From contig JAZSKX010000001.1 in the NCBI GenBank assembly GCA_045535075.1, positions 67,317 through 131,316 on the forward strand: 64,000 nt of DNA, written 5' to 3'. Origin of the DNA: Candidatus Spyradenecus sp. Lineage in GTDB: Bacteria; Verrucomicrobiota; Verrucomicrobiia; Opitutales; UBA953. The position numbers were made by a program, and so were the translations under genes. Every line of letters starts with the position of its first letter. Within the stretch, counting starts at the first letter, position 1. The notes beneath the pieces are model-generated. The model made no database searches. It had not been told where the DNA came from and saw only the letters and a list, made by a program, of their open reading frames with translations. Positions 1-63,854 of the stretch are shown here, in pieces.

Positions 1-477
1 TTCTCCGGGTTGCGTTTCGGGAAGGACAGCGAAAATCGGCGGCAGTTCCGGAGTGCGGGTTTGGAGGTTCCCGTCGGCATTTGCCGTAATGGAGATTTTT
101 GCGTTTTCAAACGTTCCCGCCTTGAATGCGACGAGCGAAAGGCGAATCTCGCCGCGGCGATGCGTCCATGAAAACTCAAAATTCTGCTCCGTTTTTTCGC
201 GGGTGGCGAGCCCGTCGGGAAGTGAAAATTCGATTTGGAACGGCGTCGCGAAGGAAAACGCACTGGTCGTTTCCAGGCGAACTTCGAAAGGCTTGCCCAC
301 GGGAACGCCTTGGGCGGAATCCGTTGCGGCGGCGGGAAGTTCGGGCTCTGAAACCGTGAACGTTTCCGCAAGGATTTCGCGGCGGGCAAAAAATCCGATG
401 ACGCCGCCTGCAATGAGCACTCCCGCAAGCAAAACGGCAATTACGATACCGAAAATTTTCAAAAATCGTTTTTTCAT
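1..477 (-). CDS. Membrane-anchored hypothetical protein, 5' part (runs off window start); possibly BatD-like
   Basis: Manually translated open frame from ATG at 477: MKKRFLKIFGIVIAVLLAGVLIAGGVIGFFARRE..., basic N-terminus plus TM helix, no stop before position 1. Confidence 0.65.
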   Translation of the reverse strand, partial: MKKRFLKIFGIVIAVLLAGVLIAGGVIGFFARREILAETFTVSEPELPAAATDSAQGVPVGKPFEVRLETTSAFSFATPFQIEFSLPDGLATREKTEQNFEFSWTHRRGEIRLSLVAFKAGTFENAKISITANADGNLQTRTPELPPIFAVLPETQPGE

Positions 478-550
478 TCCAAAAAAAATGTCTGCACAGA
501 GTTTTAAGGAAAAAGCGGCGTCAATACAGTGTTTTATTCAAATTTCTGAT

Positions 551-593
551 ACAAAAAAGCGTTCCCGCGAAATTCACGGGAACGCTTTTTTGT
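551..593. terminator. Bidirectional intrinsic terminator made of an inverted pair of the CGGGAACG motif
   Basis: acaaaaaagcgttcccg-cgaaattca-cgggaacgcttttttgt, just downstream of the 607..1758 gene. Confidence 0.85.
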
Positions 594-606
594 TCGGAAA
601 ACGAGA

Positions 607-60964: not shown

Positions 60965-61200
60965 TTTTATCCTAACTTGCTCTCAAAGATGCGGGCCTCC
61001 GTTGGACGAAATTGAAACGACGCGGGAACGCTTGTTCGTTCTCGAATCGAAAGCCTCGCTAACGGACGAACTCTTTGCAATTAAGAAAAGTAAACAGAAG
61101 AACGGCTAATGTAATATTTAATACACATCCGGTTGACATTCGCACTTAAGCACGGGAAACTTAACCGCATCGAAAGATTTAACCCTGACTTTGTCTCCCT

Positions 61201-62361
61201 ATGAAAATCAAAAAACTTTTACTCGTTGCCGCGTGTGCGGCTTTTTCGCTTCCCGCATTGGCACAGGAGCGCGTTCCCGCAGAACCCGAAAGCTCCGGAG
61301 GGAAAAAAATTGTTATCGAACTTCCGGAAATTCCGACGCCGAAAGACGTAAAAATCAAAATTTCCGGGCTGGTCCAAGCGCAATTTGTTTCCGCACAGGC
61401 AAGCGGCGATAAGGCATCCGACCAAAACGGGTTTTCTATTCGCCGCTCCAATATCGGCATAACGGCGGATGTAGGCGAAAACTGGAGTGCCAAAATCGTT
61501 TACGAAATTGATAGCGGAACCAACGGAGGAACGGATTATTCCGATTACATCGATACGGCAATTGTCTCGCGAAAATTCGACGCGGGAACACTTATCGTCG
61601 GACACAAGAAAACGCACTTCATGCACGAAGAATATTCGCCTTCGTCGAAATTCCTTTGCATCGAACGTTCCCTGAACTCCAATTTCGTTAACGGAAACAC
61701 TTACGTTCGCGGACTTTCCGGCTACCATATCGGCGTGTTCTGGGAAGGCAAACTCGGTAAAGATTTTGACTACGGAGCGTCGCTGACAAACGCTGTCGCA
61801 AAGGACTACGATGCAAAATCCAACGACCTCGCCGTTACCGGAAACCTCGGTTACACAATGAAGCTCGACGACGCAAAACTCTATTTCGGCTTAAACGGAA
61901 CCGTGAACTTTGGCGACGATGGTGCGCTCCCGGGCGCGGTAACGGATGCCCTCGCCAATGCCGGAACGGTTTACGGGATTGAGCCTTACATTCAATACGC
62001 TTGCGGCGGATTTACGGCACTCGCCGATTTTTATTACATTGACGGCGACAGCGAGTCGGAAGTTGAAGGGTTTTACGGAATTAATCTCACTGCGGCTTAT
62101 CGGCTCGAATGCGGCTTGGAACCCGCCGTGCGCTTTACGTATTTGAATACGGATTCCGGAATCGTGAATGCCCAAACGCAAAATCGCGTTCCCGCGACAG
62201 TCAATCACGACAACGCAACGACGTATTTTATCGGAGCTAATTATTACTTCAACAAACACGTTAAACTCGCCGTCGGCTACGAATACGGACACTACTTCGG
62301 CAGAGGAAAACATGCCGATGATTCCGGAGCCTTCCGTACGATGCTCCAAATTTCATTTTAA
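61201..62361 (+). CDS. Outer-membrane porin (phosphate-selective OprO/OprP-like)
   Basis: Signal peptide, ISGLVQ...FSIRR, IERS, GANYYF, C-terminal LQISF. Confidence 0.72.
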   Translation: MKIKKLLLVAACAAFSLPALAQERVPAEPESSGGKKIVIELPEIPTPKDVKIKISGLVQAQFVSAQASGDKASDQNGFSIRRSNIGITADVGENWSAKIVYEIDSGTNGGTDYSDYIDTAIVSRKFDAGTLIVGHKKTHFMHEEYSPSSKFLCIERSLNSNFVNGNTYVRGLSGYHIGVFWEGKLGKDFDYGASLTNAVAKDYDAKSNDLAVTGNLGYTMKLDDAKLYFGLNGTVNFGDDGALPGAVTDALANAGTVYGIEPYIQYACGGFTALADFYYIDGDSESEVEGFYGINLTAAYRLECGLEPAVRFTYLNTDSGIVNAQTQNRVPATVNHDNATTYFIGANYYFNKHVKLAVGYEYGHYFGRGKHADDSGAFRTMLQISF

Positions 62362-62366
62362 TCCCG

Positions 62367-63854
62367 GTGCGTTCCCGCGGCGTGAAAAATTCTTTGGAGA
62401 AGAACGTTTTTGCGGTTCCCGTGCGCGGGTTCATGCTCGACGTTTCCCGGGGGCGCGTGCCGACAATGGAGGTGCTCGCCGGACTGATTAATTTACTCGC
62501 GTGCTTACAATACAACCAGTTCCAGTTGTATATAGAACATACTTACGCGTTTGAAAATCACGAGGACGTTTGGCGCGACGCATCACCGCTGACGGCTGAC
62601 GAGTTACGCGAGTTGGACAAATTGTGCCGGGAGCGCGGGATTGAATTTGTCCCGAATCTGAATTCTTTCGGGCACGTTGAACGCTGGCTCAAGCACGAAA
62701 AATACAAACCGCTGGCGGAATGCCCGGACGGGTTTTATCACGCGATTTTCAAAATGCAGCGCGTTGCGGGAACCTTCGCCGCCTGCGAAGAAACCGCCGA
62801 TTTCATGGACGGGCTTTACGACGAATTTCTCCCGAATTTCTCGTCGGAAAAATTTAATATCGGCGGCGATGAGCCTTGGGAACTCGGGCAGGGGCGCTCC
62901 CGCGGGCTTTGTGAAAAGCGCGGCAAGCGCAGTGTCTATCTCGAACACATGGCTCGCCTGAAAAAACGCGTCGAAAAACACGGCAAGAAAATGATGTTTT
63001 GGGGCGACGTCCTGCTCGGCGAATCCGGCGAAATTCCGTCGGCATTTTTGAAAAATACAATTCCCGTGATTTGGGGTTACGATGCCGGACATCCGTTTGA
63101 CGAGCAGTGTTCCCGCGTGCTCACCGCGCTCGAAAACGTCGACGGGAGCGGCGAATTTTATCTCGCACCGGGAACCTCGTCGTGGCTGAGCTTCGGCACG
63201 CGCCAAACAAACGCGCTTAAAAACATTCGCGAAGCTTGCTTCGCCGCAAAAAAATACGGCGCGAGCGGCATTTTGCTTACGACTTGGGGTGATTTCGGTT
63301 ACCACAATCCGTTTTGCGCGAATTTGATTCCGCTCGTTGTCGCGTCCGCAGAAATGCTGGGAGGGAAAGTTCCCGAAACCGCAAAAGAATTTGCCGAAAT
63401 TTTTGAGAAAATCGGACTTTTGAATGATGCGGAATCTTTCTCCGAAGCTCTTTTGAATTTCGGAAAGCTCGATGATTGTATTTCAAAAAAAATTACAAAT
63501 CGAAGCATTACGCGCGAGATGTTTTTTGCCAAAGGTGAAGCATTTGAAAGTGTGATGAGCGGCGTTCCCGCCGACGAAATCGCCGCCGCGCAAGCCGGGA
63601 TTTCGAAAATTGAGAAAATTTTACTAAGCGTTCCCGCCGACACTCGGAATGCGTTGATATTTAAAGAACTGGTGCTCGCCGTAAAAATGGCACATGCCGC
63701 GTTACGCCGGGCGGAAGCATTTTTGAAAAACGATGCGGATGCACGCGCCGCCGTCGAAACCGAAATGGCGGGAACGCTTAAAGCCGAATTCGCCGCAGTC
63801 TGGAGGCTTTCCAACCGTGAAGGCGGCTTAGCCGAATCGCTCTCGTTTTTCTAA
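62367..63854 (+). CDS. Glycoside hydrolase family 20-like hexosaminidase (start uncertain)
   Basis: RGFMLDVSRGRVP, QLYIEHTY, VPNLNSFGH, NIGGDE catalytic pair, MFWGD, WGY, TTWGD. Confidence 0.85.
   Translation: MRSRGVKNSLEKNVFAVPVRGFMLDVSRGRVPTMEVLAGLINLLACLQYNQFQLYIEHTYAFENHEDVWRDASPLTADELRELDKLCRERGIEFVPNLNSFGHVERWLKHEKYKPLAECPDGFYHAIFKMQRVAGTFAACEETADFMDGLYDEFLPNFSSEKFNIGGDEPWELGQGRSRGLCEKRGKRSVYLEHMARLKKRVEKHGKKMMFWGDVLLGESGEIPSAFLKNTIPVIWGYDAGHPFDEQCSRVLTALENVDGSGEFYLAPGTSSWLSFGTRQTNALKNIREACFAAKKYGASGILLTTWGDFGYHNPFCANLIPLVVASAEMLGGKVPETAKEFAEIFEKIGLLNDAESFSEALLNFGKLDDCISKKITNRSITREMFFAKGEAFESVMSGVPADEIAAAQAGISKIEKILLSVPADTRNALIFKELVLAVKMAHAALRRAEAFLKNDADARAAVETEMAGTLKAEFAAVWRLSNREGGLAESLSFF

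Follow-up and report, generated by a model that had tools for sequence, protein, structure and literature searches.

What maintains the same eight bases, CGGGAACG, at 177 places on both strands of a 64,000-nucleotide stretch of bacterial DNA? The stretch, called the window below, comes from the draft genome of a Candidatus Spyradenecus species, and an earlier note, made from its letters alone, had read the word as a candidate DNA uptake sequence, a self-recognition signal for natural transformation. Such signals, the DNA uptake sequence (DUS) and the uptake signal sequence (USS), have been treated as carried by Neisseriaceae and Pasteurellaceae and so far as peculiar to these two proteobacterial families (10.1101/2025.10.24.684340; this and the other cited sources were available as partial text, and what is taken from them is limited to those parts). 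Our analysis favours the same reading: the word, in its fuller form y-c-R-CGGGAACG-c, probably evolved independently as a DNA uptake sequence in a single genus of Opitutales-like Verrucomicrobiota associated with the gut.

An exact-match count of the window returned 86 copies on the plus strand and 91 on the minus strand, at a mean spacing of about 360 bp, with 146 copies within called coding sequences and 31 outside. In 100 dinucleotide-preserving shuffles of the window the word occurred 6.09 times on average (sd 2.37, largest 14), and 0 of the 100 reached 177. All ten coordinates listed in the earlier note were exact matches, its count of at least 27 copies in the first 8.2 kb was reproduced (exactly 27 up to position 8162), and the motif ran on both strands throughout, as it had said. 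Its claim that the word is usually extended to GCGGGAACGC was overstated, because this full 10-mer makes up 59 of the 177 window sites and 1614 of the 5159 sites in the genome. The window genome (G000; 1,949,087 bases in 18 contigs, rated 99.45% complete, with the window on contig C11; no 16S rRNA was found in its assembly) carries these 5159 copies at 2.65 per kb. They fill 2.1% of all bases and make CGGGAACG the commonest 8-mer. The count is about 28 times the first-order Markov expectation, an expectation itself inflated by the motif, and the most enriched 8-mers are the word together with its one-base-shifted version, GCGGGAAC. Density was even over the eleven contigs longer than 20 kb (1.97-3.21 per kb). 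Gaps between copies were near exponential (mean 376 bp, median 262), with an excess of long ones: 27 of at least 2.5 kb against 6.8 expected, and 7 of at least 4 kb against 0.13 expected.

In a logo of the sites the information was confined to positions -3 to +8, and the flanks were at background. At position -1, 63% of sites have G and 25% have A; at position +8, 47% have C. This gives a unit of roughly y-c-R-CGGGAACG-c. With no conserved unit of tens of bases, a dispersed repeat of the repetitive extragenic palindromic (REP) or miniature inverted-repeat transposable element (MITE) type was ruled out. So was a HIP1-like palindrome: the reverse complement of CGGGAACG is CGTTCCCG, and the word had rightly been called non-palindromic. 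The one-mismatch spectrum agrees with a hard core whose edges are soft. At positions 1, 2, 3 and 5, variants were at or near background (observed-to-expected ratio, O/E, 0.4-1.8). Enrichment was seen at position 8 (G>A, 800 copies, O/E 10; G>T, O/E 5.9), at position 6 (A>G, 857 copies, O/E 6.1), at position 7 (O/E 2.4-3.9) and at position 4 (O/E 1.9-2.9). Such a spectrum is expected if the reader accepts certain changes and sites are gained and lost by drift.

The spectrum also bears on two other origins. One is that a DNA modification system, such as a methyltransferase or a phosphorothioation system, targets the word, which would then owe its abundance to selection for dense modification. 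The Dnd phosphorothioation consensus is GAAC/GTTC, which the inner GAAC/GTTC of the word resembles, and a prophage on contig C16, described below, carries a DNA methyltransferase gene, so such genes circulate in the genome. However, restriction-linked targets are normally avoided or neutral, not 28-fold enriched, and the positions outside GAAC (C1, G2 and G3) are the least tolerant of change. We consider this explanation very unlikely. The other is a drive by very-short-patch-type repair. Such a process should remove T-for-C variants, yet these were not depleted (C1T, O/E 0.97; C7T, O/E 3.9), which argues against it, and very-short-patch-like repair was rejected.

Genes were called from open reading frames (ORFs) for this analysis; the calls are rough and comprise 1512 genes covering 88% of the genome. 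Coding DNA holds 4369 copies (2.54 per kb) and non-coding DNA 787 (3.49 per kb), and at least one copy lies in 1232 of the 1512 called genes. All six reading frames are in use and yield the tripeptides AGT (1506), VPA (1198), GNA (719), RER (399), AFP (280) and RSR (267); the recurring AGT, VPA, GNA, RER and RSR that had been noticed in the window agree with these counts. Relative to the gene, 2626 coding copies are sense and 1748 antisense. When synonymous codons were exchanged within each gene, with every protein and the per-gene codon usage kept, 481 ± 21 copies were left (20 shuffles, maximum 515) against 4374 observed, an excess of about nine-fold that survives the protein-preserving shuffle. 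Shuffling the order of codons left 161 ± 10 copies (20 shuffles). CGGGAACG is a DNA-level signal, independent of codon usage, and a codon or protein artefact was rejected.

Polarity with respect to replication was absent. In 94 bins of 20 kb, 2677 copies lay on the G-rich strand and 2216 on the C-rich strand (54.7% on the former), where strand base skews alone predict 52.2%. Chi and the KOPS or architecture-imparting sequences are strongly co-oriented with replication and far sparser. The strand split lies near the composition prediction, and Chi- or KOPS-type signals were therefore rejected, including the Chi-like site that the earlier note had offered as an alternative.

The word is restricted to one genus. 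A family sample of 121 genomes comprised 19 of the window's genus and 102 of four sister genera. All 19 genus genomes hold 552-7777 copies of CGGGAACG, and the word is common to every one of them. None of the 102 sister-genus genomes shares it: their 25-383 copies are at about the level of a reversed-word control. In one genome from each of 16 other families of the order (16 genomes) the 10-mer was present 0-49 times, and no other hyper-abundant word was found in samples of 31-100 kb from five sister-genus genomes. Within the genus the word is identical across relatives with a GC content of 52-64% and a ComEC identity of 32-64%. Fifteen genomes, including the window's, carry about 2.6-4.5 copies per kb; the highest counts, 7655-7777 copies, belong to relatives of about 1.7-1.9 Mb, among them G003, in which 7655 copies in about 1.7 Mb fill 3.6% of the bases. 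Four genomes are sparse: G001, G002 and G013, the three closest relatives of the window genome, at about 0.65 per kb, and G014 at 0.29. No alternative word that would indicate a dialect was found in samples of G014 (82.6 kb) and G001 (87 kb), and in the G001 sample CGGGAACG was still the top enriched 8-mer. The G014 sample (loci L069-L075) also contains CACCACCAACC and ACCACCAACC about 45-60 times in its 82.6 kb, apparently as a repeat.

Individual sites are conserved as well. In division and cell-wall genes, a small sample, the sites of relatives coincide with those of the window in 4/4, 5/5 and 4/5 cases, and 2-4 more window sites have a one-mismatch version in relatives. In murE, three of the four sites are exact in more distant high-density species. 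The site at 59760 is exact in L004, L011 and L006 and one mismatch off in the low-density relatives L001-L003. This pattern points to an old word that has decayed in two lineages, so that something active would maintain it elsewhere. The nearest MurE relatives (67-77% identity) are metagenome-assembled genomes from animal guts, and matches to NCBIfam families of Akkermansia-type pili and Verru_Chthon cassette proteins agree with a placement in Verrucomicrobiota. NCBI taxonomy lists Ca. Spyradenecus under Lentisphaerota and Ca. Spyradosoma under Opitutia, and near kin are titled Opitutales. Two records titled 'uncultured Enterobacteriaceae bacterium', CAZWIK010000002.1 (L006) and CAZPYE010000006.1 (L007), look mislabelled, because their MurE is 67-68% identical to the window's and they carry CGGGAACG at 2.3-3.9 per kb. 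Locus L004, from record NZ_JBNPNH010000001.1 ('Candidatus Spyradosoma sp. SGI.093'), which may derive from a cultured strain, carries it at 3.26 per kb.

Many of the long gaps in the window genome cluster in two regions with Mu-type phage genes, where PHROGs matches include Gam, MuA- and MuB-like transposition proteins, terminase, portal, protease and a DNA methyltransferase. The prophage on C16 has 0.53 copies per kb against 2.68 and 2.65 in its flanks, five-fold fewer, and the GC content is equal (0.521 against 0.514-0.515). The word therefore marks long-resident DNA, not general composition.

A bias of intracellular repair or recombination that keeps the word, and lets it accumulate slowly in resident DNA only, might leave the same trace. 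It could take the form of mismatch or very-short-patch-type correction, of biased gene conversion, or of a non-polar 'self' signal for a recombination or defence nuclease. The scarcity of the word in a prophage of equal GC and its confinement to a single genus are what any slow drive specific to the host would produce. Density has fallen independently in two lineages, which implies an active maintenance process, and HIP1 of cyanobacteria is a hyper-abundant 8-mer with no proven link to uptake. Nevertheless, the very-short-patch form conflicts with the undepleted T variants and a Chi-like form with the lack of strand polarity. No repair drive is known that yields a non-palindromic 8-mer at 2.6-4.5 per kb, and the systematic inverted-pair terminators described below are, in the available parts of the literature, a known habit of uptake sequences. 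We regard a repair or recombination drive as unlikely. The depleted prophage also bears on the idea that an abundant DNA-binding protein peculiar to the genus, such as a nucleoid organiser or condensin loader, binds the word, and that selection keeps its sites evenly spread. The dense, near-random spacing, Poisson-like apart from the prophage gaps, would suit such a protein, as would the presence of copies in most genes and the similar use of both strands. However, prophage DNA in the same nucleoid should need sites and is without them, four related species keep just 0.3-0.65 copies per kb, and no known nucleoid protein needs an exact 8-mer thousands of times in six frames, at a coding cost; no candidate for such a protein emerged. 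This explanation appears quite unlikely.

Neighbouring copies often form inverted pairs. In the order CGTTCCCG...CGGGAACG (a minus-strand copy followed by a plus-strand copy), 203 of 1222 neighbours were no more than 40 bp apart, and their start-to-start spacings peaked sharply at 20; in the opposite order only 49 of 1225 were within 40 bp. Between convergent or co-directional genes, that is at gene 3' ends, lie 153 of the 203 close pairs; 4 lie between divergent genes and 46 inside gene calls. Runs of A and of T flank the pairs, and the commonest 14-mer is CGGGAACGCTTTTT (103 copies). Under a strict hairpin rule, which asks for at least 7 contiguous pairs and a T run within 90 nt of the stop codon, a hairpin was found for 131 of 1503 genes, and CGGGAACG is part of the hairpin in 68 of these cases. 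This suggests that inverted motif pairs double as intrinsic terminators. Six terminator-like hairpins with an inverted motif pair were found in the window (Table 1). If the word were chiefly a transcription or RNA signal, a terminator stem or an RNA-protein site, the genic copies would be by-products; the share of strict hairpins that carry it and the abundance of CGGGAACGCTTTTT are in keeping with this. However, the 203 close pairs cover only about 400 of the 5159 copies (about 8%), whereas 4369 copies occur alone within genes, where 40% are antisense to the mRNA, and a single copy cannot form a hairpin. A primary role of this kind is highly improbable.

An uptake sequence needs a cell that takes up DNA, and the genes for this, a check proposed in the earlier note, were recovered in part: a type IV pilus with PilT, pilins, ComEC, DprA and ComM are present in the window genome, and ComEA was not found. 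ComEC is a 570-aa protein with the Competence domain only. ComM scored 580 bits, over its cut-off, and a ComF-like protein gave a match below cut-off. A pilus-motor cluster on contig C5 encodes two PilB/GspE-type ATPases, PilT (435 bits against a cut-off of 319) and PilC/GspF. An Akkermansia-type pilus cluster on C12 encodes an Amuc_1101-family PilM-like protein, an Amuc_1100-like protein and an Amuc_1098-family secretin of 984 aa. Seven pilin-like ORFs were counted, and four of these are clustered together. In 19/19 genus genomes there are matches to ComEC, DprA and the secretin; the matches are in two pieces for ComEC in G018, DprA in G005 and the secretin in G003, and the secretin of G005 is a fragment only, at a contig end. 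The profile searches of the genome for ComEA used PF12836 and TIGR00426. The only strong match to PF12836 (HHH_3) was the Tex protein, and a weak TIGR00426 match on C15 was rejected as ComEA, as it falls in an integrase-like ORF and below cut-off. Two observations belong beside these genes. The pilus-motor genes on C5 are followed by purD and then by a RecD2 helicase, which places a recombination helicase beside the pilus motors. In G003, the genome of highest density, the secretin pieces (C2:42771-45327) correspond to query residues 95-682 and 791-971; a frameshift, a divergent insert or an error of assembly may account for the split.

One pilin looks restricted to the genus, like the word. 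This orphan type IV pilin of 141 aa, also on C5, has full-length orthologues in 19/19 genus genomes (46-91% identity), whereas 42 of 43 sister-genus genomes gave matches to the N-terminal helix only and one gave no match. A profile search of a 5.8-billion-protein collection returned about 46 full-length members at E ≤ 3e-43, followed by generic pilins at E ~1e-7. The family has 37 invariant positions, 30 of them after residue 30, in the globular part, and across the same genomes it keeps a higher sequence identity than ComEC does. Its AlphaFold model (pLDDT 83.6) has a plain type IV pilin fold. A Foldseek search against the PDB returned nothing at E ≤ 0.001 (best FimU, E 0.036). A wide structural search placed the Thermus PilA4 major pilin first, with a Z of 6.7 that is within the range the tool calls common (root-mean-square deviation 4.1, 113 residues aligned), and other pilins next at Z 4-5; ComP was not among the 50 matches listed. 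Thermus PilA4 pili serve transformation. These data point weakly to the orphan pilin as a candidate reader of the word, and it may simply be a fast-evolving major pilin.

Together, these results suggest that the word most likely drives or marks self-preferring natural transformation via the type IV pilus. In the mechanism we propose, a retractile pilus made from the two PilB-type ATPases, PilT, PilC, the PilM-like protein, the Amuc_1098-type secretin and pilins would bind extracellular double-stranded DNA through a receptor that prefers CGGGAACG, and the bound DNA would be drawn through the secretin. ComEC would then pass one strand into the cytoplasm, where DprA, ComM and RecA would recombine it. 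Fragments bearing the word would be taken up and recombined more often, so that the word would spread through the core genome by molecular drive, limited to places where protein function tolerates it, and would have a second use as terminator stems. Recently arrived DNA such as prophages would be without it. We infer from the genomic pattern that the cells are competent, that their uptake prefers the word, and which protein may read it. No in-silico refutation named in the earlier note, namely loss of the excess after codon-aware correction, strand polarisation or a lack of competence genes, went against the idea, and the comparison with relatives supported it. Two hallmarks of the DUS and USS that the note had not named, terminators made of inverted pairs and scarcity in prophages, were seen as well.

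Several points weigh on the other side. ComEA is the periplasmic DNA receptor of well-studied competent Gram-negative bacteria, and it was not among the proteins found by the two profile searches. The ComEC is short, and no metallo-beta-lactamase-type domain was detected in it by Pfam. ComEC, DprA and ComM also match in many of the control genomes, some of them from species that are not considered naturally competent. PilT, the one machinery gene for which other genera of the family were searched, is present in 61/61 sampled family genomes, 43 of them from motif-free genera, and a genus-specific machinery was rejected on this ground; the machinery therefore does not track the motif and is permissive evidence only. 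No receptor is pinned down, and the one pilin that looks genus-restricted resembles major pilins only weakly. The lower density of G001, G002, G013 and G014 is unexplained, as no gene loss was found in them among the genes compared: all four have ComEC, DprA, the secretin, PilT and the orphan pilin, and G001, G002 and G013, the genomes searched for the four-pilin cluster, have that too. Prophage depletion and genus restriction are not specific to uptake, as set out above for a host-specific drive. The gene calls are rough, and the replichores were assigned from the GC skew of draft contigs. Finally, we know of no member of the Verrucomicrobiota that is naturally transformable, and our literature search found no report of natural transformation in the phylum.

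The same search, within the limited collection covered, found no uptake sequence described in Verrucomicrobiota, including Opitutales and Akkermansia, and for the word CGGGAACG itself only unrelated papers were among the matches listed. We put at slightly above even the fuller claim that this is a third independent uptake-sequence system, the first outside Pseudomonadota and the densest known (about 4.5 per kb, 3.6% of a genome), serving self-preferring transformation with a receptor unrelated to ComP, possibly without ComEA, and with the genus-restricted orphan pilin as a candidate.

Table 1. Coordinates of the motif array, inverted pairs, motif-poor regions and candidate uptake genes (window positions, unless a contig of genome G000 is given)
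Feature	Coordinates	Strand	Context
Array of 177 dispersed CGGGAACG copies	112..63776	both	exact-match count in the 64-kb window
Four CGGGAACG copies inside murE	59633..60493 (at 59633, 59674, 59760, 60486)	+	positions kept in relatives of 67-77% MurE identity
Inverted pair CGTTCCCG-loop-CGGGAACG, A and T run flanks	560..584		adjoins 3' end of minus-strand gene 607-1758
Inverted-pair hairpin, 17 pairs then T run	6903..6943		just after GalB-like beta-galactosidase gene 4173-6884; strongest terminator-like site within first 20 kb of window
Inverted pair then T run	13210..13237		downstream of major facilitator superfamily (MFS) transporter gene 11667-13178
Minimal hairpin CGTTCCCG-TG-CGGGAACG then TTTTTT	16355..16372		downstream of aldehyde dehydrogenase gene 14843-16267
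Three motif copies (-, +, -)	34980..35031		downstream of RNase G/E-family gene 33226-34962; first two copies, at 34980-35003, form hairpin with T run
Inverted pair, A run upstream	40012..40039		between minus-strand genes 39367-39879 and 40124-40864
Mu-like prophage	C16:183460-221091 (loci L066, L067)		20 copies in 37.6 kb (0.53 per kb)
Second Mu-like region	C8: about 20800-35400 (locus L068)		also motif-poor
ComEC	C11:3775-5487 (locus L057)		
Pilus-motor cluster	C5:25804-35683 (locus L054:5804-15683)		
Akkermansia-type pilus cluster	C12:6713-13608 (locus L056:2713-9608)		
Orphan type IV pilin	C5:99026-99451		

Three further observations concern other parts of the genome. A complete resistance-nodulation-division (RND) efflux operon lies on the minus strand of the window at 17858-24238 and encodes a MexC/AcrA-like adaptor, an AcrB-like permease (1044 aa) and a NodT-family outer-membrane channel. 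A haem-acquisition set at 41290-46180 includes a TonB-dependent haem/haemoglobin-type receptor (41290-43497) and a radical-SAM ChuW/HutW-like anaerobic haem-degradation enzyme (44166-45605). On contig C1 (268634-268794; locus L055:14634-14794), about 80-160 bases that end a 693-aa ORF match dozens of places in each of five related genomes at 70-88% identity; this could be either a dispersed repeat or a C-terminal module that is widely shared.

If the word is an uptake sequence, self-preferring DNA uptake evolves repeatedly, natural transformation is predicted in gut Verrucomicrobiota, and donor DNA furnished with the word would offer an easy route to genetic tractability. The 15-fold density range within the genus would then be a natural experiment on the gain and loss of such a signal, and sister species at 0.3 to 4.5 copies per kb allow a test of molecular-drive against selection models. 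The word can also be used as a sequence marker for genome binning and for spotting prophages and foreign islands. Even without uptake as the cause, an 8-mer that fills 2-3.6% of a genome calls for explanation.

Known hyper-abundant words differ from this one in several ways. Chi and KOPS are, like it, over-represented 8-mers that recombination or translocation machines read on DNA; here the strands are split 54.7% to 45.3% at 2.65 copies per kb. HIP1 (GCGATCGC) of cyanobacteria is a clade-specific 8-mer with about one or more copies per kb that has been linked to methylation and whose function is debated. It shares with CGGGAACG its clade specificity and high density, but HIP1 is palindromic and CGGGAACG is not, and no modification of CGGGAACG is known.

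The Neisseriaceae DUS is closer. It too is a short, non-palindromic word with thousands of copies on both strands, in genes and between them; it is clade-wide, sparse in prophages and mobile DNA, forms inverted pairs that serve as terminators, and is found in hosts with a retractile type IV pilus, ComEC and DprA (10.1101/2025.10.24.684340; PMC7371117). According to the available text of one of these sources, the canonical Neisseria DUS is GCCGTCTGAA, it has dialects and is read by the minor pilin ComP, and uptake sequences in general fill up to about 2% of a chromosome and show a frame bias, while predicted terminators contain about half of all their copies and 75-90% of their inverted repeats (10.1101/2025.10.24.684340). 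In contrast, the word described here is unrelated in sequence and belongs to Verrucomicrobiota, not Pseudomonadota. Its density rises to 4.5 per kb, about 3.6% of a genome, against the up to about 2% given in that partial text. No dialects were seen among the 19 species, in which density varies from 0.29 to 4.5 per kb. Neither a ComP-like receptor nor ComEA was found in the window genome. The Pasteurellaceae USS has AT-rich phased flanks, which the word lacks (information from -3 to +8), and is likewise unrelated in sequence. In the parts of the literature available, the USS shows the same genomic behaviour, with a hard core and softer flanks and with most copies in coding regions, in favoured frames, and its receptor was recently predicted to be the minor pilin ComN/PpdA (PMC12616744, PMC7811141, PMC2817400). 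Membership of the DUS or USS by descent is ruled out, as CGGGAACG is unlike the DUS and its host is of another lineage. With an unrelated sequence in another phylum, the word would thus be an analogue of the DUS and USS that arose on its own.

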